This document shows, piece after piece, positions 41,131 to 61,079 of a DNA stretch of 64,000 nucleotides. The DNA is taken from contig JBGQNR010000005.1 of assembly GCA_041501225.1 (NCBI GenBank), forward strand, positions 3,661 through 67,660. Direction: 5' to 3'. The position numbers and the translations under genes are program-made. Numbering within the stretch: position 1 is the stretch's first letter; every line of letters starts with the position of its first letter. Origin of the DNA: Acidobacteriota bacterium. Lineage in GTDB: Bacteria; Acidobacteriota; UBA6911. Below the pieces are notes generated by a model. That model had not been told where the DNA came from and made no database searches. It saw nothing but the letters and a program-made list of their open reading frames with translations.

Positions 41131-41225
41131 CCGCAGCACGGATGATGGATGCAATCGGCCCGAACCGCACCGTATCTGCCATCGGCCGGCAGCTTGGCCC
41201 TCGTGATGGGCGCGCGGAGAGCGGA

Positions 41226-42551
41226 TCAAACCAATGCCAACAGGATCTTTTCATAGCGCTCGACAAGAACATCCTTATCGTGGTTTTGCTTTACGTACTG
41301 CACAGCCTGACGGCTCAGGGCTTCGTACTCGGCGGAAGCCTCCATCAGGCGGCTCACGGCCTCTCTGAACTGTTGCAGGTTTCCCCCGCACACCAAGCCG
41401 CTGCCGTACTGGGATAGCATGGAGCCGGGATCCACCTGCAGGGAAATCGTCGGGACCCCATATTTGGCGGCTTGGAGGAAAGTGTTGGGAAACCCCTCGA
41501 AGACGGACGTATTGATGTGCAACCTGGCGTCTGCGAAATAGGATTCGATCCGGGAGAATGGGACCCGCTCCACCAGCGTGACGTTAGGGAGCCCTCGGAT
41601 CTGCTTGACGCACATTTCGTGTGTTGCCTGCACCGCCGGATTCATGATGACCACAAACTGATATTGCGGCAAAGCGCGCGCCAGATCCAAAACGAGGGAG
41701 GGTCGCTTGATCCGTTCATCGGATTTGCCGACCCACAGGATGGTGCGTGGCTGCGGGTTTCGTGGAAATCTGGGCTTCGTGTCGATCGGATTGGGAATGA
41801 CGTCGGCGCTCCGCTGGTACACGTCCCGGAGCATCGCAGCCTGGCGCTGATTTTGCACGATATGGGCAGCGGCTTTTTCGATGGAATACAGCTTCAATAC
41901 ATGGGGAACTCCATACATGTCCGATTGTTCGGGATGAAGCTTATATTCCGGAAAGTAATCAAAATCGGAACCGGACAGGAAAACAAACTTCCGGCCGCGT
42001 TCTGCGCAAAAAAATGCGACCTCCGCCGAAAACTGGGAGTTCCCGGGCACCATGTAGATGTCGGCGTTCACCCTGTCATAAATGGAGATCATTTCGGGAG
42101 TGATAACGTACGGGCCCACCTTTCCCTGAAGCGGCCCTGGGCCGACTGGACCCGCCGATCGCCGACGAATCAATCGCATCAGCCTTTCGTGTAGATGGGA
42201 CCGCTCCTGAGACTCGGATGCAGAAGTTTCCTCCGGAGGTTTTTCACGAACCGGGATGCCCCAGATTTGCCTTCCGGTCCAGGAATGGAACGTGATGCCG
42301 TCGATTTGTTCGATAGGATCCTGGCCGTGATCGCCCACGACAAGGGAAACCTTCAAGCGTCCGCGCCGCGCCAGTTCCCGCGCGATGACCGCGATTCGGA
42401 CCTCCCACCCCCCGAAATGGGTCTGGCAGTCCGGCTGAAACAGGGGATAGTTCCACGGGCTCGTGATGCAGAGATGCGGTTGTCGAGTCATGTGTGCCAT
42501 CCCAAGGAAGGTGGAGGAAACGAGACATCCATTGTCGTCGATGGTATGCAT
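41226..42551 (-). CDS. glycosyltransferase family 4-like, paralog of 61395..62828
   Basis: NYPLFQPDCQTHFGGWEVRIAVIARELARRG...ILWVGKSDERIKRP...NTSVFEGFPNTFLQAAKYGVPTISL. The start is uncertain: the track start at 42572 is TTG, with ATGs at 42551/42500/42491. Confidence 0.75.
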   Translation of the reverse strand: MHTIDDNGCLVSSTFLGMAHMTRQPHLCITSPWNYPLFQPDCQTHFGGWEVRIAVIARELARRGRLKVSLVVGDHGQDPIEQIDGITFHSWTGRQIWGIPVREKPPEETSASESQERSHLHERLMRLIRRRSAGPVGPGPLQGKVGPYVITPEMISIYDRVNADIYMVPGNSQFSAEVAFFCAERGRKFVFLSGSDFDYFPEYKLHPEQSDMYGVPHVLKLYSIEKAAAHIVQNQRQAAMLRDVYQRSADVIPNPIDTKPRFPRNPQPRTILWVGKSDERIKRPSLVLDLARALPQYQFVVIMNPAVQATHEMCVKQIRGLPNVTLVERVPFSRIESYFADARLHINTSVFEGFPNTFLQAAKYGVPTISLQVDPGSMLSQYGSGLVCGGNLQQFREAVSRLMEASAEYEALSRQAVQYVKQNHDKDVLVERYEKILLALV

Positions 42552-45524: not shown

Positions 45525-46499
45525 TTACGAGAGGCTCTTGGCCTTTGGGTCATAGAAAATCTGGTTTTGATACGTCGTCCGGATTCTATCCAGTTCGTTG
45601 GCGGTTAAGGCAGATAATCCCACAGCGGAAGAATTCTCTATGACTTCCGTGCAGGACATCATTCCCGGAATGACCGTCGAGACGCCCTCTTCTGCCAGAC
45701 AAAACTGCAGGGCCAATTGGACGAGAGTTCGATTCGTGCCCGCGTTGAGAGGATTGAATAGTTCCGGAGCCCGAGCCCAACGCCGCAGCTGCTCGCGGGG
45801 CCAATTAGCCCGGTGGTCGCACCCCTTGAATTCCTCATCGCCCGTGAGCTTGCCGGAAAGGTATCCGAAACAAAGGGGCGTCCTCGCAACGACGCCGACC
45901 TTTTTTTTCCGGCAAATATCGAACAGCCCGCAGTCGATAGCCCGATGGTCGATCAAATTGAAGTTCACCTGCACCGCGCCAAAGCCATACTTCTCCATGG
46001 CGATCAGGGCATCCGCCGGGGAACGCGCAGAAATACCGTAGGCGCGAATTTTCCCCGCCTGTCGCAGGCATTGCAGCGTGTCTATTATCTCGTCCCAATT
46101 GGGTAGGTCGATCTGAGGGCTGTGCAATTGATAAAGATCGACACAGTCGGTCCGGAGACGCCGCAGGCTGGCATCGATTCCGCTGCCAATTTTGGCTCGG
46201 GAGAAATCCTGAGGCATGTAAAAGCCACTGTGTGGGAGCGTACCTACTTTCGTGGCAAGGACTACCTTATCGCGGCATTTGAGGAAAACCTCGCCGAGGA
46301 TTTCTTCGCTGTGGCCGTTGCCGTACAGGTCCGAGGTGTCGAAAAACGTGATCCCGAGTTCGAATGCATGACGCAGTGCACGACAAGACTCGTCGTCATT
46401 CACCGGTCCATAGGAATCGCCGCCCAGGCCCCAGGTGCCAAAACCGATCTCGGAAACTACTAAGCCGGTGCGGCCGAGTTCACGGTACTTCATTTCCAT
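45525..46499 (-). CDS. aldo/keto reductase
   Basis: MKYRELGRTGLVVSEIGFGTWGLGG...FFDTSDLYGNGHSEEILG...VDLYQLHSP. Confidence 0.85.
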   Translation of the reverse strand: MEMKYRELGRTGLVVSEIGFGTWGLGGDSYGPVNDDESCRALRHAFELGITFFDTSDLYGNGHSEEILGEVFLKCRDKVVLATKVGTLPHSGFYMPQDFSRAKIGSGIDASLRRLRTDCVDLYQLHSPQIDLPNWDEIIDTLQCLRQAGKIRAYGISARSPADALIAMEKYGFGAVQVNFNLIDHRAIDCGLFDICRKKKVGVVARTPLCFGYLSGKLTGDEEFKGCDHRANWPREQLRRWARAPELFNPLNAGTNRTLVQLALQFCLAEEGVSTVIPGMMSCTEVIENSSAVGLSALTANELDRIRTTYQNQIFYDPKAKSLS

Positions 46500-46532
46500 G
46501 CTGCCTCCACGATTCTCCCCGATCCTGCGTTT

Positions 46533-47477
46533 TCAGAGACGGATGTTCCCCTTTTTGCCATAGTTATCACAGAACCAGCGAATGGTACTCTCTAATCCAA
46601 TCCGAAACGGCGTGTACCTAAACCTGGAGCGTTCGATGAAACGGGAATTGTCGGTGCTCTTCTTCTGAATGCCTCCGGGTTTGGAACTGTCGAATACAAT
46701 GCGGTCGGGTGAGATGCAGAGAATCTCTGCGATCATCCAGGCCGTTTCCTTGACGGAGTGTTCCTCGACGGATCCCACGTGCAGAATCTGCGGGTCATCA
46801 TAATGATCGAGGCACCAGAGATAGGCCCGCGCCATATCTTTTGCATAGGTGTACTCACGCACCGGCGAGCCATCTCCCCAGATGACGATGGGTTCATTCG
46901 ATTGGCGGCTTTCGCAAAACCGACGGATCAATGCTGCCACCATGACCGATTCTTCGGGCCGAAAGTTGGCTCGTTCTCCAAAAATGCCGTTGGAAACCAG
47001 GCCGATCACGTTCATCCCGTACTCGGTGCGGTAGGCCCGGATGCTTGGCTCAATCAGCCTCTTGGCAAAAGAGTAGCTATAATTCGATTCGTGCGGCGGG
47101 CCATCATGAATATATTCTTCCCGGATTGGATTGGGGGCGTCGACTGGGTACATCCCGGTAGAAAGCGTCAGGATGCATTTGGCCACACAATGCAGTCGGG
47201 CGGCTTCCAGAACATTGAGGTTCATCAAGACGTTGTCGCGGAGCAGGGTCGCCGGATGTTTTTGGCTGTATTGAATGCCCCCTGCCAGCGCCGCGGTGTG
47301 AATTATCGCATCCGGGCGGAAACGATCGACAAGTCCCACCGTGTCATCCAGCCGGGTCAGATCACAATCTCGGGAGCCGACAAACAGGAACTCCCCGCCG
47401 GGATATTTCCCCGAGACTGCCTGGATGGCGCTTCCCAACAGCCCGGTGCCGCCGGTAACGAGGATTTTATGATACAT
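46533..47477 (-). CDS. NAD(P)-dependent epimerase/reductase, GDP-L-fucose-synthase-like (SDR)
   Basis: KILVTGGTGLLGSAI, then a short N-terminal Rossmann domain followed by NYSYSFAKR (YxxxK) and ALIRRF. Confidence 0.7.
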   Translation of the reverse strand: MYHKILVTGGTGLLGSAIQAVSGKYPGGEFLFVGSRDCDLTRLDDTVGLVDRFRPDAIIHTAALAGGIQYSQKHPATLLRDNVLMNLNVLEAARLHCVAKCILTLSTGMYPVDAPNPIREEYIHDGPPHESNYSYSFAKRLIEPSIRAYRTEYGMNVIGLVSNGIFGERANFRPEESVMVAALIRRFCESRQSNEPIVIWGDGSPVREYTYAKDMARAYLWCLDHYDDPQILHVGSVEEHSVKETAWMIAEILCISPDRIVFDSSKPGGIQKKSTDNSRFIERSRFRYTPFRIGLESTIRWFCDNYGKKGNIRL

Positions 47478-47486
47478 ACTCGATGA

Positions 47487-48452
47487 TCATCCCTTTGGAG
47501 AGACCGCCGGAAAGATGAATTTCGGTTTGTCTTTGATTTCGTCATAATGTGCCGAATACCAGTTCACGGTCCGCTGGATTCCTTCCGCCAGATCCTGGTT
47601 CAGACACATTTTATATTTCTCCGCGAGCCTGGTCGTGTTCAGGAATTTTGACTGCACGCCGACATAACGCTGGGTATTGAAGAAAAGTTGGCTTTGGAAA
47701 TCGGCGGCTTTCCCGATCGCGAGCGCCAAGTCCCGGATCGATGTGCCTTTCCCGGGAGCCAGATTGAGGATCTCACGATCCAGGCGCGGAATCAGGTCGA
47801 GCAAGGCACGGACAAAATCCTTCACGTATAGGAATTCGCGTATTTGCGATCCATCCCCCCAGATTTCCACCATCGGCAGATGCTCCCGCGTGGCGCGAAC
47901 GAATTTGGCGACGAGGGCGCCACACACATGGGCGGTATCCGCGTGAAAATCGTCGTGTTCGCCAAAGAGAGTCGGCGGGATGATATAACTCCCGTTCATG
48001 CCGAACTGGTCATTGTAGGCCAGGATGCCGGTGTATAGGAGGCGCTTGGTGAATGCATAGGAATAGACGCTCCCGTGAATCTCTCCGTCCAGGAAGCTGG
48101 CTTCTCGCAAGTCGTCCAGTCGGCTGGGGTAGGCGCAGGAGGATCCCATGGCAATTAATTTCGCCTGGGGAGAAAATCTCCTCCATGCCTCCAGCACATG
48201 GGTGTGAATCAAGCTGTTGATGCGGAACTGCTCTGCCGTATGTTTCGCCGGGAAATCTCCGGCAGCCTGAAAACAGGCGAGGTGGAGTATGACTTCCGCA
48301 CCGTCATTCTGCGCAAACACAGCGTCGGCCTGCTCTCGGATCGTCAAGTCGAATTGACTTTTTGAGAATACAACAAAGTCGGCCTTTCGACTCTCCAGCT
48401 CTTCCTGGAGGTGCCTGCCGATGAAACCAGTTCCGCCTGTCACAAGGATCAT
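47487..48452 (-). CDS. NAD(P)-dependent epimerase/reductase, GDP-L-fucose-synthase-like (SDR), second copy
   Basis: MILVTGGTGFIGRHL, SSCAYP, VYSYAFTKR and ALVAKF. The start overlaps the upstream stop (ATGA at 48449..48452). Confidence 0.7.
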   Translation of the reverse strand: MILVTGGTGFIGRHLQEELESRKADFVVFSKSQFDLTIREQADAVFAQNDGAEVILHLACFQAAGDFPAKHTAEQFRINSLIHTHVLEAWRRFSPQAKLIAMGSSCAYPSRLDDLREASFLDGEIHGSVYSYAFTKRLLYTGILAYNDQFGMNGSYIIPPTLFGEHDDFHADTAHVCGALVAKFVRATREHLPMVEIWGDGSQIREFLYVKDFVRALLDLIPRLDREILNLAPGKGTSIRDLALAIGKAADFQSQLFFNTQRYVGVQSKFLNTTRLAEKYKMCLNQDLAEGIQRTVNWYSAHYDEIKDKPKFIFPAVSPKG

Positions 48453-49453
48453 GGTGCCAGCATCTCTTTGATTTTTGCCGCGATTTTTGCAGTGGATGGA
48501 TAGAAACACTTTTCTAAAACACCGCTAGCCGGCATCGAACATTCGGGAAAGGTGAAGCGCCGGACGGGTGCCTTCAGGTATGGGAAGGCCTTTTCGGCGG
48601 CCAACGCACAAACTTCCGCGGCAAAGCCGCACATCGGGAAATCATAGTCCACGACCAAGAGACGCCCGGTCTTTTTTATCGAGTCGATGATCAATCCGTC
48701 GTCGAGAGGTTTCAGCGTTTGCGGATCGATCACCTCCACATCCAGTCCATGCTCTTCGCAGGCATTGAAGGCGTCGATGGCGGCGATGGAGGTAGCCACC
48801 ACCGTCAACCGCTTCCCCTGTCGCATCACAAGCCCCTTCCCTAGAGGCAGCGTGTACATTTCCGGGGGCACATGGCCGGTGTTTTTGTACAGCCATCGGT
48901 GTTCGATGAAAATTACCGGGTAATCATCCTGGATCGAGGCGAGAAACAATCCTTTCACATTGTAGGGAGTGGAAGGCATCACGACTTTGAGACCCGGAAT
49001 GTGGGCGAACAGAGATTGCATGGAGCCGGAATGCTGAGCGCCTGATCCCCATCCCCGGCCGATAACGGCCCGAATCACAAGCGGTACCTTGACTTGACCC
49101 TGGGTCATGTAGCGCCATTTCGCGATGTAGTTCACGATCTGGTCCATGGTGAGCATCATGAAGTCGACGCGCAATTGAATAAAGATCGGGCGCATGCCCG
49201 ACAGTGCAGCGCCGAGCGCGACGCCGGTCATCGCGTTTTCCGATATCGGCGTGCCGATGATTCTGTCCGGATAGGACATGTTGTGCATGCTGCCGAAAAC
49301 GCCAAATTTATCGTTGGCGTCCAGGCCGATGGCGAACACGGATGGATCGAGAACCATCGCCTGGTCGATCGCTTCTCGGATGGAATCCTTGAAGCTGAGG
49401 ATCCGGTCGCCGTCGACTAGGTTCTGGCATTGAGGAATTCTGCTCCAGGGCAT
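48449..49453 (-). CDS. TPP-dependent 2-oxoacid dehydrogenase E1 component, beta subunit-like
   Basis: SFKDSIREAIDQAMVLDPSVFAIGLD...RIIGTPISENAMTGVALGAALSGMRPI...PLVIRAVIGRGWGSGAQHS is the transketolase pyrimidine-binding plus C-terminal domain pattern. Confidence 0.8.
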   Translation of the reverse strand: MPWSRIPQCQNLVDGDRILSFKDSIREAIDQAMVLDPSVFAIGLDANDKFGVFGSMHNMSYPDRIIGTPISENAMTGVALGAALSGMRPIFIQLRVDFMMLTMDQIVNYIAKWRYMTQGQVKVPLVIRAVIGRGWGSGAQHSGSMQSLFAHIPGLKVVMPSTPYNVKGLFLASIQDDYPVIFIEHRWLYKNTGHVPPEMYTLPLGKGLVMRQGKRLTVVATSIAAIDAFNACEEHGLDVEVIDPQTLKPLDDGLIIDSIKKTGRLLVVDYDFPMCGFAAEVCALAAEKAFPYLKAPVRRFTFPECSMPASGVLEKCFYPSTAKIAAKIKEMLAP

Positions 49454-49454
49454 C

Positions 49455-50408
49455 TTACACCTCCCTCACGAGATCGGATTCGTTCGGGAAAGGGCTGTTC
49501 AGTGAAAACTCGATGGCCTCATCAATCTCCGCCTCCACCGCAGCGATCATTTCCTGAATCTCGTCGGAAGAGACGATTTGATTCTCCCGCAGCGTGTCTT
49601 CGAGCTTTTTGATAGGGCAATCACGTGCCCGATCGACGGGATTATATGCTAAGTCATCCACTTCCACCCCTTGGTGCTTCATCCAACGTTTGGTCGTACA
49701 TCGCAAAAACATCGGGGCCCGGTTTGATCGGACGTAATCCGTCGCCTGCGCGGCGGCATGGTAGACCGATAGAACGTCCGTGCCGTCAGCGCACGCGACG
49801 GGCATGAATTGGCGGGCGACGTTTTCGATTTCCACGAAAAGGTGTTCCGACTTGGGCATGACATTCGAGAGGGCATTGTCTTCGCACACCAGGAGAACGG
49901 GGACCCGTTTGAGTGCCGCGAAATTGATGCTCTCCCAGAATACGCCGGCATCCATAGCCCCATCGCCGAAGCAGGAGACCGAAATCCAGTCGGATCCTGT
50001 GAGCTTAGCGGCCAGAGCCGATCCAACCCCCAGGGCAATGCTACCACCAACGATCGAAGAGCTGCCCAGCATGCCGTTCGGCACGTCCACGAGGTGCATG
50101 GACCCCCCATACCCGCGCGCGCACCCTGTGGTTCTGCCGTATAGTTCCGCCACCAGCTTCTTCATATCCATCCCTTTTGCCAGGGCGGGGCCGTGGGAGC
50201 GGTGCCCGAAGAAGATTTTGTCGGCCGTAGCCAAGTGGGCACAAACGCCAACGGGAACCGCTTCCTGCCCAATGTGCAGATGGACCGGAGTCACCATCAC
50301 GTCCGTCGGGTAGATCGTTATGATTCTCTCTTGGAGCTGGCGGATCTCCCGCATTTTCCGCAGCAACCGGAGGGAGATGTCACGCGGAGGGATCGTGGGA
50401 TGTTGCAT
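49455..50408 (-). CDS. TPP-dependent 2-oxoacid dehydrogenase E1 component, alpha subunit-like
   Basis: HLHIGQEAVPVGV...GYGGSMHL...SCFGDGAMDAGVFWESINFAALKRVPVLLVCEDN is the TPP-binding GDG..N motif. Confidence 0.8.
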   Translation of the reverse strand: MQHPTIPPRDISLRLLRKMREIRQLQERIITIYPTDVMVTPVHLHIGQEAVPVGVCAHLATADKIFFGHRSHGPALAKGMDMKKLVAELYGRTTGCARGYGGSMHLVDVPNGMLGSSSIVGGSIALGVGSALAAKLTGSDWISVSCFGDGAMDAGVFWESINFAALKRVPVLLVCEDNALSNVMPKSEHLFVEIENVARQFMPVACADGTDVLSVYHAAAQATDYVRSNRAPMFLRCTTKRWMKHQGVEVDDLAYNPVDRARDCPIKKLEDTLRENQIVSSDEIQEMIAAVEAEIDEAIEFSLNSPFPNESDLVREV

Positions 50409-50427
50409 ATTGCATTCGCCTTATTCA

Positions 50428-51519
50428 CTAGGTTGTGCCGCATTCTTTCGTTTGCAGCCGGATAGCGAGATCGGACTCACGGAACGCTTCAATCGGACGG
50501 TTTTCCCTGTCCTTTTCCTCGACGGAATAGTCCTGTTCCGGGTCGAAGAAAATGATCTGGCTGCCGGAGAACGAGATGCAGAAGGGTACATATAGCAGTT
50601 TAGACAAACGTTCCCGCACCGCAACCTGGCAGGAAGGAGGCACGAAAAGAAGCATGAATCCGCCACCTCCGGCTCCGGTCAATTTCCCGCCGATCGCTCC
50701 GGCGGAACGGGCTTGCTGATACAGCGTATCCACGTCACCATTGGAAACCTGATCGCTGAGGCTTCGTTTCGTCTCCCAGCTTTCATGGAGGAGTTTACCA
50801 AACAAGGAAATATCCTGCCCGCTGCTGATGACGGAAAGTCCTTCATCCACCATATCCCGCAGGATGCGCAGTTGGCGCTTCCGTTTCTCGATTTCCCGTG
50901 TGTACGTGTGTGCGACTTCTGCGGCGGTGCGTGTAATACCCGTATAAAACAACATCAGGTAAGATTCCAGTTCCCGGAGGCGCTCCTTGGTGATGGTGAC
51001 CGGTTTGATGGAGATTTCTCCATTCTGCAGAAATTCGATATGGTTGAGCCCGCCGTAGGCAGCAATGACCTGATCCTGGGATCCTACGTTTTCCCTCATG
51101 ACTTCCTGTTCGATATAGATGCTCTCCAGCGCAAGCTTCCGCTTGCCCGGCATCTGCCCCTGGAGCGCATAAAGAGCGTGCAATAGCCCTACGGTGAACG
51201 AGGAACTCGATCCCATGCCGCTGCGCGCGGGCAGATCGCCCTGGTGATGGATTTCGATTCCGCGCTCAATCTTTAGATACTTCAATATGCCCCGCACGGC
51301 CGGGTGAAGAATCTCTTCCAGAGACATGCAGTTCTCAATTTTCGACCAGACCACACGATACCTGTATTCGAAAAACGGCGGCAAATGTCGACAGGTCAGG
51401 TAAGCGTATTTGTCGATGGAACAAGCCAGAACGGCACCGCCGTGATCACGATACCAGACCGGGTAATCCGTTCCGCCACCGAAGAATGAAATACGATAGG
51501 GTGTTCTACTGATGATCAT
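50428..51519 (-). CDS. GHMP-family sugar kinase (HddA / heptose-7-phosphate-kinase-like)
   Basis: IISRTPYRISFFGGGTDYP...GDLPARSGMGSSSSFTVGLLHAL...GKLTGAGGGGFMLLF. The ATG at 51519 has RBS aggaaagga. Confidence 0.8.
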   Translation of the reverse strand: MIISRTPYRISFFGGGTDYPVWYRDHGGAVLACSIDKYAYLTCRHLPPFFEYRYRVVWSKIENCMSLEEILHPAVRGILKYLKIERGIEIHHQGDLPARSGMGSSSSFTVGLLHALYALQGQMPGKRKLALESIYIEQEVMRENVGSQDQVIAAYGGLNHIEFLQNGEISIKPVTITKERLRELESYLMLFYTGITRTAAEVAHTYTREIEKRKRQLRILRDMVDEGLSVISSGQDISLFGKLLHESWETKRSLSDQVSNGDVDTLYQQARSAGAIGGKLTGAGGGGFMLLFVPPSCQVAVRERLSKLLYVPFCISFSGSQIIFFDPEQDYSVEEKDRENRPIEAFRESDLAIRLQTKECGTT

Positions 51520-51643
51520 AATTCCTTTCCTTTGCACGCGGTACTCGTGATGGTACATGTGCGTTTGATACCTGACACTGCTGTCCGGGGTATGAGCGAT
51601 CTACGGGATCCCACCGGCGACCAAAGACTCCCTGATACGGAAC

Positions 51644-52363
51644 TCAATCGCAAGCCAAAAACCCGGGAGCCATGCCATAGGTATCCGGCGTGCCGATATC
51701 AAGAAACCGGACGAAACTCCGATATCCATAAAATGCCCGTCCGATCCACGAGGGAAATATGTCGCGTTCGATCGACAGGGGAACATGAGCCGGCATGGCT
51801 TCGATCCAGGATCTTGCAATCAAGTACACGCCGGCATTAATCCATCCCGGTCCGCCCTCGTTCTTTTCGCGGAATGACTGGATCGCTCCCACAGCATCCA
51901 CTAGGACTTGCCCGTAGCGGCTCACATCGTCAACCTCCGCCAGGAGCAAGGAAGCGCCCGCGTTCCGCTCGAGATGCCATGCCCAGAAGGCGACGAAATC
52001 CGCTTTGGCGATCGAATCGCCGTTCATGACCAGAACGTATCGGGATTGGATCCTCGCCAGTGCATGACGCAGAGCTCCTGCGGTTCCCAATGGGGTAGGC
52101 TCTTGGGAATACAACAACTGCCGGCCAGCATATGTGTCCCCCAGCACGGCGCGCACCTGATCTCCGCGATACCCGGTACAGAGTACAATGCGGGTAATCC
52201 CGGCTGTGGCTACCTGGTCCAGAAGATAAGTCAGAAACGGCTTTTGATTTACCTCTGCGAGCACCTTGGGGCGGTCCGCGACCGCCGAGCGCAAACGAGT
52301 TCCCAATCCGCCCACCAGAATTACCGCCGTCGCGTCCGACAAATTTTCCGCAGTTTTACACAT
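51644..52363 (-). CDS. sugar-1-phosphate nucleotidyltransferase (HddC/GMP-like)
   Basis: AVILVGGLGTRLRSAVADRPKVLAEV..KPFL is the N-terminal G-x-G-T-R-L signature. There is an 8-nt overlap with the upstream gene. Confidence 0.8.
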   Translation of the reverse strand: MCKTAENLSDATAVILVGGLGTRLRSAVADRPKVLAEVNQKPFLTYLLDQVATAGITRIVLCTGYRGDQVRAVLGDTYAGRQLLYSQEPTPLGTAGALRHALARIQSRYVLVMNGDSIAKADFVAFWAWHLERNAGASLLLAEVDDVSRYGQVLVDAVGAIQSFREKNEGGPGWINAGVYLIARSWIEAMPAHVPLSIERDIFPSWIGRAFYGYRSFVRFLDIGTPDTYGMAPGFLACD

Positions 52364-53297
52364 TTTTGAACGGCGCCCGCCCCAGCATCCGGTACCCCTT
52401 GAGGAGTTCTTGAATCCCGACATCCAACGAACGGCGCGCCTGGAAGCCAGCTTCCTTCAATCGCCGATTGGACACGATGTAATCGCGTTTGTCGGGATCA
52501 CTTCCCACGGGAGCGAAGTGTATATAAAATCGGGGCACGTATTCCTTGACTTTCAAAGCGAGCTCTTCTTTCGAGAGATTGGCCTCGTCGAGCCCCAGAT
52601 TGTAAGGGCGACCGACCATTTCTGAAGAATGCGCAATGCAATGGAGGAAGCAGTCTGCCACGTCACGAATGTGGATGTAGTTGCGTTTGGCGTCTTTTTC
52701 GAAAATGACGATGTATCCATCGGTCACGGATGCGTAGACAAAATGATTTACCAACAGGTCGAGCCTCATCCGGGGAGACATTCCGAAAACCGTGGCCAGT
52801 CGCAGCGTCACGGTGTTCGGACTGTCCAATAGTTCTTTTTCTGCCTGGACTTTGGTTTGGCCGTAAAGCGAGATGGGCTCGAGCGAGGTATCCTCCGTGC
52901 AAAACCTGTCACCCGATTGGGTGCCGTAGCCGCTATTGGTGTTCGGGTATATGACCAGCTGTTGCGGGCTACGCAATCGATTGACGAGCCGAACCGCTTC
53001 GAGGTTGATCGATCGCGCCATCCAGGGATCTCGATCGCAGGCCGGTGCGCCGACGAGGGCCGCCAAGGGGATGATGACATCGGCATTCTTGATGCACCGG
53101 CTCATCAAAGATTCGTCGCGGGCATCTCCGAATACAAAATCAAAACCCGGCTGCGCACAATGTTGGAAAAGCGTATGCTGCGAGTAGTAGAGGTTGTCGA
53201 CCACCGTGACCTGATGGCCTGCCTGGAGCAGGTGTTCGCATAAAATGGAACCCAGGTATCCTGCGCCGCCTGTGATCAAAACTCGCAAATCCATCAT
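52356..53297 (-). CDS. NAD-dependent sugar epimerase/dehydratase (SDR)
   Basis: VLITGGAGYLGSILCEHLL and the catalytic YxxxK LYGQTKVQAE. Confidence 0.8.
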   Translation of the reverse strand: MMDLRVLITGGAGYLGSILCEHLLQAGHQVTVVDNLYYSQHTLFQHCAQPGFDFVFGDARDESLMSRCIKNADVIIPLAALVGAPACDRDPWMARSINLEAVRLVNRLRSPQQLVIYPNTNSGYGTQSGDRFCTEDTSLEPISLYGQTKVQAEKELLDSPNTVTLRLATVFGMSPRMRLDLLVNHFVYASVTDGYIVIFEKDAKRNYIHIRDVADCFLHCIAHSSEMVGRPYNLGLDEANLSKEELALKVKEYVPRFYIHFAPVGSDPDKRDYIVSNRRLKEAGFQARRSLDVGIQELLKGYRMLGRAPFKNV

Positions 53298-53475: not shown

Positions 53476-56301
53476 TCAATGGCTTCCAGCCCCTCTTAGC
53501 CCGATCCCTGGGCGACAAGAGAGGCGGTGGTTGATTCGCAATGCTATCTCCCAAAGCAGGAGAAACGCCGCGACGACGGCCAGAAACTCGGAGGCTTTGA
53601 CCATCCTGGGGATCGGCGCGGCGAAAAGCGCCGTAAGTCCGACGTGGGCCAGATGAGCGAGGATCATGACCGCTGCGGCATAGCCGCACCGCCCACGCAG
53701 CCAAAGCGCAGCGAGGAAGCAAAGACCATAGAGAAAATACGGATCGAGGAAACCACAACGGAACCTGGCTCCGCTAGGCTGGGTAAGCCCCAATACCCAG
53801 AACCTGATGCCAAAACTCAGATAATCCAGCCGCCGGGTGGCCAGGATTGGAGTGGCAATCTTCATCAAGAATTCGGCCGGCTTCGGGTGGCCGGCGATCA
53901 TGGGCAGCGCCACCTTATATAGATTGTTGTTGATGTAGTACACGTACCGGCAGTATTCATCCCCTTTACACATCTCATCTACGCTCCGGTGCTCCATCTC
54001 TCGGCGTGCGAGCGCAGACTGCAACCATTGACGCGACTCCTCATCCGGCATCAACCCGACATCCTGCGGCTGAGCGACCTGCAGGGCATAGGTGATACGG
54101 TACTGGTACTGAAGATTCTCCTGGGCCGCCCCTAATTGGCCGGTCTTGATCATGCCGTAAATATCCGGGATGGTTGCCAACGCGATCAGCGGCAGGATGG
54201 AGAGCAGGGCCCAGCGCCAGTAGGTTCTCCAATTGACAAACAACGCCCAAAGAATCATGGCGACCAGAAACAGGAACGTATAACCGGCGGCCTGGCGAGT
54301 AAGATAAATGGCGCCGCACAGCAGACCGGCGAGGGGCAGCATGCTCTTCCGTGCATTCCAAAGGAACAGGAGGAATACGGACATCAGAAGCAACACCAGG
54401 GTCTGCACCAGGTCTTCGGTCAGGATCAGATTCAATTCCTGTGCGGTAAAGAAAAGAAAGTCATATAAAAAAAGGAAGAGAATCGCGGGGAGAGGTGACC
54501 TCAGAAGGGTCATCAAGAACCAGCAGCTGACGAGGCCTGCCGCGAGCAACAAAAAAATCTGCACGCGTCCCACCCGAAGCAAGGGATCGCCAGGGTCGGT
54601 AATCGCGATATTCACCGGATGGACCTTGGCCCACGCCGCGGGATCAAAACCGCTCCCGAGCGTGACCAGCTTGATGAACCATGGGTACAAAGGCTGCCGT
54701 GGAGAACCCACATAATACCCGAAATAGTAACTTGCAGAATCGGGTGCCGTGCAACAGGCGTCCCACGCGGAAAGGGGCGCCTCCGTGCGACACCACTGCG
54801 CTGGGTTCGGGGCGACGGCGGTCAGAAGATAGTAGGCGACAACGAGCGCAGCAAAATGAGGTGCAAGGTACTTCTTCGGACAGAGTGCCCCGAATTTTTT
54901 TCGCAACAGCCATGCCAGCAGTACATTCAGCGGGACGATAACCCGCCAAAGAGTTCCATGCAGCAAGGACAGGGAAGAGAAGGCACGGGATAAAGCGATG
55001 ACGACTATCGGAAATGCTGCGCACAACACGACCGCCCATACCACTTTGGGAGTCCATAGGGACTCTAGCGAAATCCGTCGCTTCCTCATCAGCAAAACTG
55101 TAGAGGAGGTCGCCAAACCACAAAACAAAACCGTCAGAGCGTACAGGACATAAGCGGGCAGCCTGCCTACCATGCGCGGGTAACGCATCTCATACCGACG
55201 ACCGTTCATCCGAGGGTCGGCATTATCCGAGGCCGAAAAATAAACACACTCGTGCCAGAACGAATAGCGCCCTTTTCCGAGGGTACGAATGTCGTCGTGC
55301 AAGGCATTGGCCGGGCCTGCCAGGGGTGTGCCGTCCTCCAATAATTGTGCCGGGGAGGGGCCCTTGTGGGAACTCAACAGGGGATCATGGGTAGGAGCCA
55401 TGTAGGCGAAGCCATGTTCCGCCTGGATGCCGGCGATGACGCCCGAACCCCAATAGGGAGTCAATCTCCCCAAGCGATTCAGATAAATCAGGAGGGATAA
55501 ACTCAACAGAAGCAAAGAAGCCGGCCAAAGTATCCGCGGAGAGATTGTTACTTGCTCTGCCAATTGCAGGAATGCCTTCGGCACGAACGCCAAAATGGCT
55601 GCCACTCGGGCACGCCGATTCGCAGGGGACGCAACACGTTCGGGCCAGAGGCGGCGCAAACCCTCCCTTTTCCTCCATGCGATGCGCAGGGCGAGGAGCG
55701 CGACCCCAAAGACGGCGATGAATGTGATGCCGTACAGTATGCGAGCCGAACCATCATCCAGAGAGCGCGGGAAGGAGATTTCGTACTTTCTGCCATTGGT
55801 GCGGGGGTCCGTATTGTCGGAGGTGGCGAAATAGACGAAATCGTGCCAAAAGGAGTAGCGGCCCCGGCCCGACCTCCGTATGTCGTCATGCAGAGAATTC
55901 CCGCCTCCCGGCAGAGGGGACCCGTTCTCGAGGATTCGGGCCGGGGAAGGTCTCTCATGCGAACTCAATTCCGGCAAATGCGTGGGCGCCACATAGGCGA
56001 AACCGCGCTCCGGCTGAAAGCTATCCAATGTGGTCTGTTTCCACAGAACGGTCAACTTTCCCACGTGGCTCTCATACACCACGTAGGATGTCGTGCTTAA
56101 GAGGGCCACCAACAATACGTAACCCACGAACAGTGCCGTCCGCCAACGCTTCCCAATTACCAATGCAACCTCATTCTTGATTCCGAATCGACGGCATGGC
56201 CTACTTCCATGCAGCACAGCTGCCAAATCCGTGCCGGGAAGTGCCTCAGGCAGGGCCTGCCCCTGAGACGCCGGTGCCAGGTATTTATGGAACAGAACCA
56301 A
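53476..56301 (-). CDS. large polytopic membrane protein carrying two recurrent modules (A-type); possible GT-C-like enzyme
   Basis: 941-aa ORF. One TM precedes module 1, 2-3 TMs separate the two modules, and 12 or more hydrophobic segments follow module 2. There is no ATG near the 5' end: the track start is TTG, and a TTG at 56163 with gagg upstream is an alternative. Confidence 0.75.
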   Translation of the reverse strand: MVLFHKYLAPASQGQALPEALPGTDLAAVLHGSRPCRRFGIKNEVALVIGKRWRTALFVGYVLLVALLSTTSYVVYESHVGKLTVLWKQTTLDSFQPERGFAYVAPTHLPELSSHERPSPARILENGSPLPGGGNSLHDDIRRSGRGRYSFWHDFVYFATSDNTDPRTNGRKYEISFPRSLDDGSARILYGITFIAVFGVALLALRIAWRKREGLRRLWPERVASPANRRARVAAILAFVPKAFLQLAEQVTISPRILWPASLLLLSLSLLIYLNRLGRLTPYWGSGVIAGIQAEHGFAYMAPTHDPLLSSHKGPSPAQLLEDGTPLAGPANALHDDIRTLGKGRYSFWHECVYFSASDNADPRMNGRRYEMRYPRMVGRLPAYVLYALTVLFCGLATSSTVLLMRKRRISLESLWTPKVVWAVVLCAAFPIVVIALSRAFSSLSLLHGTLWRVIVPLNVLLAWLLRKKFGALCPKKYLAPHFAALVVAYYLLTAVAPNPAQWCRTEAPLSAWDACCTAPDSASYYFGYYVGSPRQPLYPWFIKLVTLGSGFDPAAWAKVHPVNIAITDPGDPLLRVGRVQIFLLLAAGLVSCWFLMTLLRSPLPAILFLFLYDFLFFTAQELNLILTEDLVQTLVLLLMSVFLLFLWNARKSMLPLAGLLCGAIYLTRQAAGYTFLFLVAMILWALFVNWRTYWRWALLSILPLIALATIPDIYGMIKTGQLGAAQENLQYQYRITYALQVAQPQDVGLMPDEESRQWLQSALARREMEHRSVDEMCKGDEYCRYVYYINNNLYKVALPMIAGHPKPAEFLMKIATPILATRRLDYLSFGIRFWVLGLTQPSGARFRCGFLDPYFLYGLCFLAALWLRGRCGYAAAVMILAHLAHVGLTALFAAPIPRMVKASEFLAVVAAFLLLWEIALRINHRLSCRPGIGLRGAGSH
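55177..55422 (-). other. recurrent ~82-aa module, A-type copy 2 of the membrane protein
   Basis: AEHGFAYMAPTHDPLLSSHKGPSPAQLLEDGTPLAGPANALHDDIRTLGKGRYSFWHECVYFSASDNADPRMNGRRYEMRYP. Confidence 0.7.
55768..56013 (-). other. recurrent ~82-aa module, A-type copy 1 of the membrane protein
   Basis: PERGFAYVAPTHLPELSSHERPSPARILENGSPLPGGGNSLHDDIRRSGRGRYSFWHDFVYFATSDNTDPRTNGRKYEISFP. Confidence 0.7.
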
Positions 56302-56435: not shown

Positions 56436-57647
56436 TTACGGCCGTTCCACGGTAAACCGACCGCCGATATGTTTCAGATGTGCGGGATCCAGGTTCTGGT
56501 ATCTAGAACCGTTAGCTTGGCGAAGCCGTGGTATAAAATCGGACAAGTACGCGTCGTCGGCAGTACAACTTGATGTGAATTCACGTACACGGAATCCCGC
56601 GAGCTGAAACATCTCATGATAATCCGAAGGGCGATATCGATTGCCGCATTCGCCATGTTTCTCGATAAACTGCTTGGCGAATTCCTGATCGCCCATAAGC
56701 AAAAACTCGAGGGGTTTGGAGAAATCATTGTGATCGCGAAAATCTACTTGATGATAGCCTAGGGCGGCGCGCTTAGAAACGCGCGCCATTTGACGAAATG
56801 CGGAGAGTGGATCAAACAAATGCTCCAGTACCGCAATGGAAAATATGATGTCCATAGTCGCATCAGGTATGCCTTCAAGTTTCTCCAATGACGTGGCGAA
56901 GCACTGAATGCTCAGGGGATCATACCCTTTTTGTCCCAGAATTTTATCTAGCGGGGCCAGATCGACTGATGAAAACGTAGCCCTAATCCGCTCGCGAAGA
57001 AGTGAGTAGAATCTTGGATGATAGGCCTCGTCCCAAGGCGCCAGAAAGCGGTCGCTCACCGTCACGTGGGCACCCATGCATGCCATCAGGAGTGGGCTGC
57101 CGAAATTGATGCCTGGCCCAATCTCGAGCACGGTCTTCCCAACTAAGGTGCGGCTTCCTTCGGGGAGCCATCGAACTAAGTTCTGGCCTATTTCCATCGC
57201 GTATGCGACATCCTTGTCTATAGCTTCGGGAGAAAAATTGCGCATGGATAGGTTTACCGGCTTATTTTCGGTAGGAAGAGAATTGTGAGTCAGACTATTT
57301 TTCATCTCACGGGCCTTCCGGAAACACCATGCAATAGGGGTCAATAGCTTCGGCGGGAAGGCGATCTCATACCTCCGACCATTTGTGCGCGGGTCGGTAT
57401 TATCCGAAGCCGAAAAATAAACCGCATCGTGCCAAAAGGAGAATCGCCCTTCCCCAAGGTTGCGAATGTTGTCGTGCAAGTCATTTCCGGGTCCAGAAAG
57501 CGGAACACCATCTTCCAACACATGCGCCGGGGATGGCACCCGGTGTGAGCTCAATTCGGGTCGACAGGTCCCTGCAATATAGGCAAACCCCCTCTCGGGC
57601 CTGATTTCCGCCAACAGGGCATGTCGCCAAGGCCCGTATCGCTTCAT
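56436..57647 (-). CDS. recurrent module (A-type, N-terminal) fused to class I SAM-dependent methyltransferase
   Basis: Module aa 17-98, then VLEIGPGINFGSPLLMACMGAHVTVSD (motif I) and IIFSIAVLEHLFDP. Confidence 0.8.
   Translation of the reverse strand: MKRYGPWRHALLAEIRPERGFAYIAGTCRPELSSHRVPSPAHVLEDGVPLSGPGNDLHDNIRNLGEGRFSFWHDAVYFSASDNTDPRTNGRRYEIAFPPKLLTPIAWCFRKAREMKNSLTHNSLPTENKPVNLSMRNFSPEAIDKDVAYAMEIGQNLVRWLPEGSRTLVGKTVLEIGPGINFGSPLLMACMGAHVTVSDRFLAPWDEAYHPRFYSLLRERIRATFSSVDLAPLDKILGQKGYDPLSIQCFATSLEKLEGIPDATMDIIFSIAVLEHLFDPLSAFRQMARVSKRAALGYHQVDFRDHNDFSKPLEFLLMGDQEFAKQFIEKHGECGNRYRPSDYHEMFQLAGFRVREFTSSCTADDAYLSDFIPRLRQANGSRYQNLDPAHLKHIGGRFTVERP
57354..57599 (-). other. recurrent ~82-aa module, A-type copy (N-terminus of methyltransferase)
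   Basis: PERGFAYIAGTCRPELSSHRVPSPAHVLEDGVPLSGPGNDLHDNIRNLGEGRFSFWHDAVYFSASDNTDPRTNGRRYEIAFP. Confidence 0.7.
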
Positions 57648-57828: not shown

Positions 57829-58533
57829 TCATGCCTGAACATCGTAGGGGCAAACAAAATCTTGGGGATTTATTTTCTGATGCGCGACCATGTACAACAC
57901 GTTCGGCACGGAAAGCTGGGCTCTCAGGTGGACGAAGATTTTTTCCCGGATATCCTCGTGTTTCAGTCCGTCAAAAGTGATGTACATTTTCGGTCGGGAC
58001 CCACCGGCCTCATCCAGCGCATCGCGCACAAAGTGAAATGCCTCGGCTAATAATCGATACCCATTCGCTTCCGCAACGCCTCTGAATATCATCGGGTTAA
58101 AATTGTAGTAACCATGCTCAAACCATGAAATCGGCGCAACATGAATGATCGTACCGCCGACGCACGTCAACTCGTGAAGATTGCGAAACGCCGTCCCAAT
58201 ATCAAAAATATGCTCTATGGTTCCTGCATCCAGGACCGTCCTGGCGGCTGCAATCCACGGCTTCGGCAGCGGCTGCCCAAAATCAAGAGCCAGATCGGCC
58301 TTCCCGTTGAGATCGCAATCGCGATAATCCGCAACGGCATAGCGGTCCAGGAACAGACTCCGCGCGGTCATTTCCCTGGCCAGATGTCTATGGCCATTTT
58401 GTGCGGCAAAATCAAGGATCTTATCCTTCGTCTCGTGAATCTCCTGAGACCCCAGGACGAAAAGCGGAGACTGGATAGCTTTTTGTGCGTAGCACAGGTC
58501 ATAAAACGGAAGATGAGAGAAACCTATTCCCAT
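57829..58533 (-). CDS. methyltransferase-like protein immediately downstream of wzt
   Basis: VLDAGTIEHIFD and GGTIIHVAPISW resemble the post-motif-I/II region of class I methyltransferases. The start codon abuts the wzt stop (TGAATG). No clear GxGxG motif was seen, so the assignment is tentative. Confidence 0.55.
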   Translation of the reverse strand: MGIGFSHLPFYDLCYAQKAIQSPLFVLGSQEIHETKDKILDFAAQNGHRHLAREMTARSLFLDRYAVADYRDCDLNGKADLALDFGQPLPKPWIAAARTVLDAGTIEHIFDIGTAFRNLHELTCVGGTIIHVAPISWFEHGYYNFNPMIFRGVAEANGYRLLAEAFHFVRDALDEAGGSRPKMYITFDGLKHEDIREKIFVHLRAQLSVPNVLYMVAHQKINPQDFVCPYDVQA

Positions 58534-60246
58534 TCACTTCTCCGGCTGAAGCCCTGCCTGGAAGTCAGCCCGGGATGATGCCAGCAGACGCTCTTCAATG
58601 GGCTGCGCATTCAAATCTACGATGGAAGTGGTAAAAATCTCATTGTTCCTGCCAACTTCAAACTGCAATCCATCATATTGGAGGTCGTACTGGACATTAT
58701 CCTCGGCATAAGGATCGGCGGCTGCAGAGGTCAGGAAGTATATCTCATTGGTGAGCCACATGGTCACCTTCATGGCGGCTTCCACAAGGTCTCCCTTATA
58801 TTGCTTCCGGATCGTGGATTTTTGAAGTCGTGTGCTCGTCCCGAACATGTCCACGCCTTTGCGGTCTCGTATCACGAAGCCGAAAACCGTTCCTTCCACA
58901 TCCTCATAATACAGCACCCGCATAAACAGGGTACAATGCGCGCCCGACGTCAATATTACGGCAGGATTTCCGTCCTCATCGAGGATTCCGGATTCAAGGA
59001 TCTCGGCCTTGCCGTTCCCCATGCGCGCCAGTCGAGGGCTGGACAATTCCATCGGTTGGGATCTCCCTAATCGGTCCAGCGCGCGTCGGCGCAGAGTCTC
59101 TCTATCCGGATCCTGGATCATCCCCGGAGATGGCTGGGAAATGGGACGTACAACCTCACGCCGAAGACTATAAACGCGGCCATTAGATCTTGGATCGCTG
59201 TTGTCGCTGGTTGAAAAGAGCAGCGCTTTTTCCCAGTGGGAATATCCTCCTCTGCCATGTTTGCGGATCAGGTCATGCGTGTAATGAGCCGGGCGCAGTG
59301 GCTTGTCATCTTCATACAGCACAAAACGGGATCGCTGCGGATTCTCTGACGAATCGCTATGTACTGCATGGCCGGTCAGGTCGATCCACCAGGCATGGCC
59401 GCCCTCATGCTTGATCTTGCCTGCATCCAGGATAATTTCGGATTCCCCCTCCAGGGCTTCTTCCACTGCAGGAGCCGTTATTGAGGTTACTCTTTTCTCT
59501 CCCGCATCGCTGGCGAAGAGCATTTTGTAATACACCTTGCTGATGCGCTGGGGCTCGCCCTGATCGGCAATCTGCCCGCCCTCTAATAGGACGGCATGGT
59601 CACAGAAGGTGCTGATGGTATTGCTGTCGTGCGAAACCAGCAGGATCGTCCGGCCGACATTTCTGAACTCTTCGATCTTGCCGAAGGACTTGCGCTGGAA
59701 TTTGGCGTCCCCGACCGACAAGGCTTCGTCGATGATCAGGATGTCGGGATCGACGCATACCGCGGTGCTGAAGGTCAACCGGGCCTGCATACCCGTGGAA
59801 TAGGTCTTGAAGGGCTGGTCAATAAAGTCCTCGAGCTCGCTGAACCGGATGATCCAATCCATTTTGTCCAGGATTTCCTCGCGGCTCAATCCGACCATAA
59901 GCCCGCCGAGGTAGATGTTTTCCCGGCCGCTGTATTCGCTGTGAAAGCCGGTGCCGAGTTCCAGAATGGAAGAAACCCGGCCCTGGACCGCAACTCCACC
60001 GGCAGTGTAATCGAGCGTTCCGGTGATAATTTTGAGCAGCGTGCTCTTCCCCGCGCCGTTGCGCCCCATGATGCCCACAACCTGCCCCCGGCCCACTTCG
60101 AGGGACACGTTTTTCAGAGCCCAGAAAGGCTTGTATCTCGGCTTGCCGGTACACAGTTCCCAGAACATGTCCGCCGGCCTGGCGTAGATCTTGAACATCT
60201 TGGAGAGACTGGAAACGCGGATCGCAATCCCGTCGGCACCATTCAT
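58534..60246 (-). CDS. wzt: O-antigen/glycan ABC exporter ATP-binding protein Wzt with inserted recurrent module (B-type) and C-terminal Wzt_C-like domain
   Basis: Walker A GRNGAGKSTLLK, signature YSTGMQARL, Walker B ILIIDEALSVGD, and H-loop LVSHD. The module is at 59155..59406, and a beta-rich Wzt_C-like region lies at ~58645..59028 (GKAEILESGILDEDGNP...SGAHCTLFMRVLY...). The ATG at 60246 overlaps the wzm stop (ATGA). Confidence 0.85.
   Translation of the reverse strand: MNGADGIAIRVSSLSKMFKIYARPADMFWELCTGKPRYKPFWALKNVSLEVGRGQVVGIMGRNGAGKSTLLKIITGTLDYTAGGVAVQGRVSSILELGTGFHSEYSGRENIYLGGLMVGLSREEILDKMDWIIRFSELEDFIDQPFKTYSTGMQARLTFSTAVCVDPDILIIDEALSVGDAKFQRKSFGKIEEFRNVGRTILLVSHDSNTISTFCDHAVLLEGGQIADQGEPQRISKVYYKMLFASDAGEKRVTSITAPAVEEALEGESEIILDAGKIKHEGGHAWWIDLTGHAVHSDSSENPQRSRFVLYEDDKPLRPAHYTHDLIRKHGRGGYSHWEKALLFSTSDNSDPRSNGRVYSLRREVVRPISQPSPGMIQDPDRETLRRRALDRLGRSQPMELSSPRLARMGNGKAEILESGILDEDGNPAVILTSGAHCTLFMRVLYYEDVEGTVFGFVIRDRKGVDMFGTSTRLQKSTIRKQYKGDLVEAAMKVTMWLTNEIYFLTSAAADPYAEDNVQYDLQYDGLQFEVGRNNEIFTTSIVDLNAQPIEERLLASSRADFQAGLQPEK
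59155..59406 (-). other. recurrent ~82-aa module, B-type copy (inside Wzt)
   Basis: EGGHAWWIDLTGHAVHSDSSENPQRSRFVLYEDDKPLRPAHYTHDLIRKHGRGGYSHWEKALLFSTSDNSDPRSNGRVYSLRRE. Confidence 0.7.
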
Positions 60247-61079
60247 AGCACGTTCCCGAACATCACCTTCATTTTGCGAAACACACGATATCCCAGGACG
60301 AAAACGAAGAGGCTCGTCCCAACGAATGCCGCCCACGACCACGGGTGAACAAACCGCCCGAAATACAGAATATCCTGATAACACCAGACCATATAGCTGA
60401 AGGGATTGACGAAGAGGACGACGCGCACGGCCGTGGGCACGGATTCGGGCAGATACAGGATCGGCAGAATGAAAAACGCGACGGAGCAAAAGACCTGGAC
60501 AAAGTCTTTCACGTCACGAAAGTAGGCGCCCACGGATGAAAGCAGATAACTTGCGCCGATCATTGCCAACGCCTGCACCAGGAAAAGCAACGGCAGCAAA
60601 GCAAAAGTCCAAAGCAATTTGTGATAGGTGAAGAGATTGTATGCGGTCAGGAGCGCCAGGAAGATGATCTGAGTCGCAAGCGTGGCGATCACACCCTTGA
60701 CCGGAAGGACCTCGATCGGAAAGATCACCTGCTTGACCAGGTTGGCGTTCGCGACAATCACCGTCCCGGATTTCGTCATGCTCTCCTGGAATGCCAGCCA
60801 TGGGATCAGGCCGGCAAGCATGTACGATGTGTAGTTGAGCGGCATATCCAAGGTGCCGCCTACGCGCGTTCGAAAAACATACGCAAATATAAAAACGTAG
60901 ATCAGGATCAGGGCGAGCGGGTGGCCGATGGCCCAGAACGTCCCGAAGAACTGGCCGGAATAGCGCTCGCCGATCTCGCGCTTCGCCAACTCCAGAGTCA
61001 GGCGGCGGTGCCGGGTGAGCAGCGCAATCAGCTCATGAAATGCCTGCAAATTGGCCTTGAGATTCAATGCCGAAACCAT
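60243..61079 (-). CDS. wzm: ABC-2 type glycan exporter permease Wzm
   Basis: ~278 aa with six hydrophobic segments (FWAIGHPLALILIYVFIF, YMLAGLIPWLAF, ...) and translational coupling to wzt. The ATG at 61079 was chosen because the upstream 64 codons of the track ORF run through MITE family B. Confidence 0.85.
   Translation of the reverse strand: MVSALNLKANLQAFHELIALLTRHRRLTLELAKREIGERYSGQFFGTFWAIGHPLALILIYVFIFAYVFRTRVGGTLDMPLNYTSYMLAGLIPWLAFQESMTKSGTVIVANANLVKQVIFPIEVLPVKGVIATLATQIIFLALLTAYNLFTYHKLLWTFALLPLLFLVQALAMIGASYLLSSVGAYFRDVKDFVQVFCSVAFFILPILYLPESVPTAVRVVLFVNPFSYMVWCYQDILYFGRFVHPWSWAAFVGTSLFVFVLGYRVFRKMKVMFGNVL

Follow-up and report, generated by a model that had tools for sequence, protein, structure and literature searches.

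A three-part Wzt with a folded extra domain between its ATPase and Wzt_C domains in an acidobacterial polysaccharide cluster

The window considered here, a stretch of 64,000 nucleotides from contig JBGQNR010000005.1 of an Acidobacteriota bacterium, carries on its reverse strand the gene for Wzt, the ATPase of a Wzm/Wzt exporter of the ATP-binding cassette (ABC) type, directly downstream of the gene for its permease partner Wzm. The protein is a canonical exporter ATPase plus an extra domain, and thus a genuine three-part Wzt: a small folded module is inserted between the nucleotide-binding domain (NBD) and the C-terminal carbohydrate-binding domain (CBD, Pfam Wzt_C). An earlier note on this DNA, written from the sequence alone, had described such an insertion and had suggested that it serves a second recognition or docking step.

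The Wzt gene, its domains and its Wzm partner

The gene pair and the segments of Wzt are listed below, with residue numbers counted in the 570-residue protein. The supporting model is an AlphaFold2 prediction of the full-length chain built on 64 homologues (mean predicted local distance difference test, pLDDT, of 82), and 8dku is the structure of the Aquifex aeolicus Wzt (404 residues).

60243..61076 (-): Wzm, ABC-2 permease partner (Pfam ABC2_membrane, E 1.1e-11; directly upstream of Wzt)
58534..60246 (-): Wzt coding sequence, 570 residues plus stop codon (open reading frame list; identical public protein P0008)
59509..60246 (-): NBD, residues 1-246 (Pfam ABC_tran; 8dku alignment; motifs; residues 7-244 confident in the model)
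59446..59508 (-): linker 1, residues 247-267, predicted to be disordered and of varying length among homologues (pLDDT below 50 for residues 247-266; gap-rich, unconserved columns in alignment A3)
59155..59445 (-): inserted module, residues 268-364, a small alpha/beta domain of the B subtype of an uncharacterised family (folded in the model; profile match)
59110..59154 (-): linker 2, residues 365-379, predicted to be disordered (pLDDT below 50 for residues 366-378; variable columns in alignment A3)
59071..59109 (-): conserved helix, residues 380-392, R..LRR.AL..LG (confident helix 380-392 in the model; conserved columns)
58579..59025 (-): Wzt_C carbohydrate-binding domain, residues 408-556 (Pfam PF14524; alignment to the 8dku CBD; beta-rich and confident over residues 407-556 in the model)

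The open reading frame list extends the Wzt frame to 58534..60489 (-), 651 residues from a TTG. The real start is the ATG at 60246 (MNGADG...), since it overlaps the Wzm stop codon as ATGA and yields the 570-residue product identical to P0008. Wzm is called as a protein of 278 residues on identical contigs, with a candidate 5' end as far upstream as 61271. Wzt is therefore found where a member of its family is expected, i.e. adjoining an ABC2_membrane gene, with an ATGA overlap, inside a polysaccharide cluster. Its NBD holds the Walker A, signature, Walker B and H-loop sequences of an ABC ATPase; the four motifs that the earlier note had named within the first ca. 245 residues were all located (GRNGAGKST at residues 61-69, YSTGMQARL at 149-157, ILIIDEALSVGD at 169-180, and LVSHD at 203-207). 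Pfam ABC_tran matches residues 44-176 (E 4.7e-22), and the best match among PDB sequences is the A. aeolicus Wzt (E 2e-78). At the other end, the region of ca. 58645..59028 that had looked like a Wzt_C domain is matched by the Pfam profile over residues 408-544 (58615..59025; E 1e-25; 90.8 bits, cut-off 30.4).

What separates these two domains sets the protein apart. Residues 8-246 align to residues 2-240 of the A. aeolicus Wzt and residues 410-481 to its residues 254-324, so that only about 13 residues of 8dku lie between the two aligned blocks against some 160 in the present Wzt. The NBD-CBD linker of the A. aeolicus protein itself comprises residues 241-249, i.e. nine residues (PMC9445017). 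The long tether is a variant feature and no reason to exclude the protein from the Wzt family. In Foldseek searches of the model against the PDB, full-length A. aeolicus Wzt chains rank first (E about 1e-36); the match to 8dku_A (E 4e-36) has a target-normalised TM-score of 0.81 and spans 534 alignment columns against a target of 395 residues, and therefore the model keeps the usual arrangement of NBD and CBD while the insert loops out. The alignment, the structural comparison and the nine-residue linker agree with the claim that the insertion is absent from characterised Wzt proteins, as far as the structurally characterised A. aeolicus Wzt is concerned. In place of its nine-residue tether we find about 160 residues made up of a disordered linker, a folded module of ca. 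95 residues, a second disordered linker, and a conserved helix.

The module profile matches 59161..59415 and the folded domain of the model spans 59155..59445, in good agreement with the B-type copy read earlier at 59155..59406; the subtype is likewise confirmed. Folded on its own by AlphaFold2, the module reaches a pLDDT of 96.1 and a predicted template modelling score of 0.85, with five short strands and two short helices. It is thus a distinct module that folds independently in prediction and is common to methyltransferases and a membrane protein of the locus. Eleven of its residues are invariant in 64 module-bearing Wzt proteins (S306, E312, H321, G331, G333, S336, W338, F344, S345, P352, and Y359). 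In the helix that precedes Wzt_C, A389 and L390 are invariant and R386 and L393 nearly so (homologue motif R..IR..AL.KLGL); the motif is present also in the module-less homologues P0073, P0085, and P0069.

Three other explanations of the insert were rejected. The hhalign probability for a degenerate second Wzt_C is 0.9% (over 19 columns), so the insert is not a second copy of that domain, and residues 247-407 give no Wzt_C match. A frameshift or gene-fusion artefact is contradicted by the continuous reading frame and by an architecture common to 70 independent clusters. Lastly, the insert does not represent a TagH-like C-terminal extension, as the match to PRK13545 is confined to the NBD.

Distribution of the module in the window and beyond

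Translated in all six frames and searched iteratively, the window yields seven copies of the module in six open reading frames, spread over 26 kb, with per-domain E-values of 1e-28 to 3e-57; such recurrence is far beyond chance. The two subtypes recognised earlier hold as well: A and B differ by a six-residue indel, and the Wzt copy is of the longer B type. The six copies outside Wzt are given below (TM, transmembrane).

57354..57605 (-): A subtype, N-terminus of the methyltransferase 56436..57647 (rest of the protein Pfam Methyltransf_23/11)
55768..56019 (-): A subtype, copy 1 of the 941-residue membrane protein 53476..56301, TM1-TM2 interval (profile; TM positions and charge bias)
55177..55428 (-): A subtype, copy 2 of the same membrane protein 53476..56301, TM3-TM4 interval (profile; TM positions and charge bias)
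39952..40212 (-): B subtype, C-terminus of the methyltransferase 39946..41229 (Pfam Methyltransf_12/11)
37282..37533 (+): A subtype, small stand-alone protein 37258..37728 (profile; no Pfam family; no TM-like segment)
33374..33634 (+): B subtype, FkbM-type methyltransferase 32360..33907 (Pfam Methyltransf_21; TIGR01444)

Neither Wzt nor the three module-bearing methyltransferases contain a TM-like segment. The stand-alone protein 37258..37728 (+) has 156 residues, most of them belonging to its one A-type module; its gene is flanked by a GT4 gene on one side and a methyltransferase gene on the other. The 941-residue protein 53476..56301 (-) is a polytopic membrane protein that matches no Pfam or NCBIfam family and has two N-terminal TM-module-TM hairpins; it may be an enzyme that modifies the glycan after export.

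Three-part Wzt proteins are recurrent in nature and not peculiar to the source genome. The module occupies the same position in 70 of the 120 best Wzt homologues (45-70% identity, 549-605 residues when complete), all 70 of them from uncultured lineages; named sources are metagenome-assembled genomes (MAGs) of Thermoanaerobaculia, Chloroflexi/Anaerolineales, Bacteroidales, and a "delta proteobacterium". The Wzt of a Maridesulfovibrio MAG has its domains in the identical order, but both the module and Wzt_C diverge further. In a set of one genome per species (185,579 species) only six loci with a three-part Wzt were found. The module-less proteins P0069, P0073, and P0085 (503-509 residues) share the NBD, the helix before the CBD, and Wzt_C with the present Wzt, P0073 and P0085 at about 52% identity over 96% of the query; in these closest module-less relatives a low-complexity, acidic and proline-rich stretch of ca. 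100 residues stands in place of the module. When NBD and CBD are combined in a neighbour-joining tree, clades without the module fall among those that bear it, and the distribution is patchy. The simplest history would be that the module entered a tether of already considerable length once, long ago, and was then lost repeatedly.

The module belongs to a large, uncharacterised family, of which no description was found in the curated family libraries, the solved structures or the literature that were searched. Its consensus (...S.L.L.EDG.PLGP.H..H..IR..G.GRYSHW...LYFSTSDNSDP..NGR.Y.) has 12 columns invariant in 16 copies. A profile search of 1.84 billion cluster representatives returned 4,236 proteins with E up to 1e-3 and 3,273 with E up to 1e-10, so that the family, counted as clusters at 50% identity, has at least 4,236 members. 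Such an exhaustive profile search was needed: a word-indexed search with the insert alone found seven small proteins only and missed its own protein. No Pfam-A 2025 or NCBIfam 20.0 family covers the module in the six proteins of the window, nor is any such family common to 56 multi-module proteins. The profile has no match among PDB sequences at E up to 1, and Foldseek finds none in the PDB at E of 1e-3 or below (best E 0.3, query-normalised TM-score at most 0.41). Literature searches on the module motif and on extra Wzt domains yielded nothing relevant.

Family members carry up to six tandem copies. In the 56 multi-copy members the Pfam partners are Radical_SAM with SPASM, GT1 and GT4 glycosyltransferases, families of SAM-dependent methyltransferases including TylF, nucleotidyltransferase, sulfotransferase, beta-helix, PKD, and BNR. 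Membrane proteins like the 941-residue one form a common class (850-1,370 residues) with two to five N-terminal TM-module-TM repeats. Of 96 modules with TM flanks (49 proteins), 71 have more lysine and arginine on the non-module side and 14 have less (Wilcoxon p 6e-11); the positive-inside rule therefore predicts an extracytoplasmic position for these modules. Some other members begin with hydrophobic, signal-like N-termini. Taken with Wzt and the methyltransferases, which lack TM segments, this indicates that the domain is used in both compartments. A PilZ-like site for c-di-GMP, considered on account of a D-x-S motif, was rejected by reasoning, since the motif is wrongly spaced for it and the module is not confined to the cytoplasm.

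Within the species-level set the module is found in cultured Bradyrhizobium, Azospirillum, Pedobacter, and Magnetospirillum and in many MAGs. The loci compared here are a biased selection covering 10 kb on each side, against a spread of 26 kb in the window, and counts made on them are indicative only. At the module loci that lack a module-bearing Wzt, Wzm or Wzt occurs within 10 kb in 22 of 64, and two or more modules in 41 of 64. In this sample a module-bearing Wzt and modules in neighbouring genes occur together frequently, with neither obligatory for the other. Six to eight module copies are packed into 20 kb at a locus of a Caulobacterales MAG (L036) and at two Azospirillum loci (L056 and L078), the latter both from cultured strains that might be used for experiments; no Wzm or Wzt lies within the fetched stretch of any of these three.

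The same domain is found in the predicted structures of proteins from Klosneuvirinae (giant-virus) MAGs, at TM-scores of 0.79-0.97 and 28-46% identity. The five proteins, from Hyperionvirus and Harvfovirus, are BFVD entries A0A3G5ADE5, A0A3G5AEI9, A0A3G5A2W3, A0A3G5AAL9, and A0A3G5A4X5; the annotations are galacturonosyltransferase-like, amidotransferase, radical-SAM, and class I methyltransferase, with a fifth protein uncharacterised. Either these viruses truly possess glycan machinery of this kind, or bacterial sequence has contaminated the assemblies.

The part of the window between 24.6 and 62.8 kb is one large polysaccharide cluster around Wzm/Wzt. It encodes GT4 and GT2 glycosyltransferases, at least six proteins with a methyltransferase domain and one weak methyltransferase match, two AsnB-like amidotransferases, epimerases, dehydratases, a split transketolase-like E1, a GHMP kinase, and a nucleotidyltransferase. 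The export of a lipid-linked, heavily tailored and probably methylated polysaccharide by Wzm/Wzt is the best explanation of this setting. Other genes of the cluster are:

57829..58533 (-): open reading frame of 234 residues that begins immediately downstream of the Wzt stop; no family matches it at E up to 1
45525..53297 (-): block of unusual sugar genes (aldo-keto reductase, two epimerase/dehydratases, split transketolase-like E1 with alpha and beta parts, GHMP kinase, nucleotidyltransferase, and a further epimerase)
28795..30741 (-): AsnB-like glutamine amidotransferase/asparagine synthase
34127..36055 (+): second AsnB-like glutamine amidotransferase/asparagine synthase

The product of 57829..58533 gives the impression of a loose resemblance to methyltransferases; at the locus L003 a gene of 232 residues holds the equivalent position after a module-bearing Wzt. 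The same locus is syntenic with part of the sugar block (aldo-keto reductase, Methyltransf_24, and GT2). AsnB-like genes lie beside this Wzt subfamily also in L004, L005, L085, L086, and L087; together with the module protein of giant viruses annotated as an amidotransferase they hint at amidated sugars in this class of glycans. L087, the locus of a module-less Wzt relative, further contains (at 6542..7141) a gene for a stand-alone Wzt_C-domain protein of 199 residues, adjoining genes for a B12-binding radical-SAM and a radical-SAM/SPASM protein. Such a protein would provide cap binding by a free domain, outside the transporter.

Possible roles of the module

We read the module as a putative ligand-recognition domain for a feature of the polymer or of its lipid-linked precursor, and put the probability of this reading at roughly 45%. 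In Wzt it would add two more flexibly tethered binding sites per transporter dimer, acting before or alongside cap recognition by Wzt_C. These sites may hold or capture the finished, modified chain near the transporter, ahead of its engagement by Wzt_C and the NBD groove; alternatively, the module may check a second feature besides the terminal cap. The same domain in the enzymes of the locus would bring their catalytic domains to the same polymer. The behaviour of the family (its size, tandem copies, and fusion to many glycan-active enzymes) is that of a binding module and supports such a role, as does the presence of Wzm or Wzt at 22 of the 64 module loci mentioned above. Because the module occurs in both compartments, a ligand available on both faces of the membrane, as glycan or in lipid-linked form, fits better than a cytoplasmic protein partner. 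Of the second step once proposed, recognition is therefore kept as the best reading, whereas docking is weakened by the loci with module-less Wzt and by the extracytoplasmic modules. A wider version, which we would call tentative and on the whole doubtful, makes the module a shared "reader" of one class of ABC-exported, tailored polysaccharides, placed on tailoring enzymes, exporter, and extracytoplasmic enzymes alike; Wzt would then have two features to proofread, the module reading an internal or lipid-proximal mark and Wzt_C the terminal cap. If true, a single shared domain would direct synthesis, modification, export, and post-export processing alike to the polymer.

Several observations weigh against recognition of a glycan feature. 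The fold is unlike any known carbohydrate-binding module or other solved structure in our PDB searches. The family is also unusually conserved (mean column identity of 51% in alignment A1, with invariant S, E, H, W, and D residues), whereas domains specific for a glycan, Wzt_C among them, are highly variable; such conservation fits a structural role, a generic ligand or a bound metal better than it fits a variable glycan. Moreover, the replacement of the module by an acidic linker in close Wzt relatives makes it dispensable for transport as such.

The possibility that the modules dock, by binding each other or a common scaffold, seems unlikely to us. The Wzt copy would tether the module-bearing cytoplasmic methyltransferases and so couple tailoring or termination to export. 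Its presence in Wzt and in three methyltransferases of the window speaks for this. Directly downstream of the module-bearing Wzt in L004 and L005/L009 lies a gene for a protein with a C-terminal module; further modules occur within 10 kb in seven of nine loci with a module-bearing Wzt, three loci of close module-less Wzt relatives hold 0, 1, and 0 modules, and the tandem arrays could reflect self-association. Yet module-less Wzt genes in L011, L013, L016, L068, and L080 are flanked by one to five modules, module-bearing enzymes included, and in L003 and L008 a module-bearing Wzt stands with no other module within 10 kb; pairing of module with module is therefore not obligatory. Nor are Wzt modules closest to those of their own locus: identity averages about 0.51 among Wzt modules and is 0.33-0.46 between Wzt and non-Wzt modules of the same locus. 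The recurrence of the architecture in 70 of 120 homologues, i.e. well beyond one genome, also speaks against docking. Many modules, moreover, are predicted to be extracytoplasmic or lie behind signal-like N-termini, out of reach of Wzt. This applies to the idea that the module-bearing membrane protein is recruited to the exporter, which we abandon: by the charge bias (71 against 14, p 6e-11) its modules are predicted to be extracytoplasmic and could not meet a cytoplasmic Wzt.

A role confined to the transporter is, in our estimate, quite improbable. The module would have no external ligand and would tune the motion of the Wzt_C dimer relative to the NBDs and its coupling to ATP hydrolysis, or simply stabilise the linker. 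Rigid-body motion of the CBD dimer, its contacts with the hinge and H-loop helices, and a conformational change of the short linker have been described for A. aeolicus (PMC9445017). In the present subfamily of Wzt the tether is long whether or not it holds the module, the conserved helix is there as well, and on the Wzt tree the presence of the module is patchy. A Wzt-specific mechanical role is nevertheless an inadequate explanation, because the same domain with its invariant residues occurs in thousands of unrelated enzymes, secreted proteins, and tandem arrays; the eleven residues invariant across 64 divergent Wzt proteins also tell against a mere spacer. We see only a slim chance that the ligand of the module is undecaprenyl (pyro)phosphate or the head group of a phospholipid, by which soluble enzymes would be kept at the membrane and the polymer, through its reducing end, at the exporter. 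Its high conservation suggests a generic ligand, this one would be available on both membrane faces, and in membrane proteins the module sits directly between TM helices. Soluble methyltransferases, furthermore, need a route to the membrane; WbdD has a C-terminal membrane-binding region. Against this, Wzm already keeps Wzt at the membrane. Soluble members with as many as six copies in tandem, and those fused to beta-helix and PKD domains, look more like polymer binders than lipid binders, and neither an amphipathic nor a basic patch is present in the motif.

Current models of Wzt-type exporters comprise two domains, a motor and a cap-binding domain, and are not overturned by the present protein. 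A conserved third domain on a long tether would mean that a further step may enter into substrate selection or into coupling to the tailoring enzymes. The occurrence of the family in cultured bacteria makes its function directly testable, and knowledge of the ligand would annotate thousands of proteins.

Comparison with known systems

Carbohydrate-binding modules in general resemble the present module in being small, in tandem arrangement, in the mostly beta-strand fold (here a prediction), in their varied glycan-active partners, and in their presence in secreted proteins. The module differs in lacking a sequence or fold match to solved structures, in being cytoplasmic as well, and in its unusual conservation. 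The TagH/TarH exporter ATPases for teichoic acids (NCBIfam PRK13545) have a related NBD, and some have extra C-terminal parts; the match of our Wzt is limited to the NBD (residues 9-243, 200.9 bits against a cut-off of 538), and its extension has no similarity to theirs.

The closest relative with a solved structure is the WzmWzt transporter of A. aeolicus (PDB 7k2t and 8dku; PMC9445017), which has the same NBD (E 2e-78), a Wzt_C domain, and an adjacent Wzm, and to whose O-antigen-bound form (8dku_A) the model is similar at a TM-score of 0.81. By analogy, the CBD described here is expected to bind a terminal, possibly methylated, cap. The two proteins part in the tether, of nine residues there and about 160 here, with a folded extra domain and a helix. 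With the systems of Wzt and the terminator WbdD of E. coli O9a/O8 and Raoultella/Klebsiella O12 (PMC3482155, PMC9445017), the cluster shares the ABC-dependent pathway and the presence of methyltransferases and a kinase-like gene in the locus; going by these systems, the C-terminal binding domain of Wzt implies an export that would depend on chain termination. Their Wzt proteins are of the two-domain type, the C-terminal domain being the one that binds the cap. As far as the searched literature shows, the terminators of E. coli, Raoultella, and Klebsiella have no domain in common with the transporter, whereas in the present cluster the exporter and several of the tailoring enzymes carry the same module.

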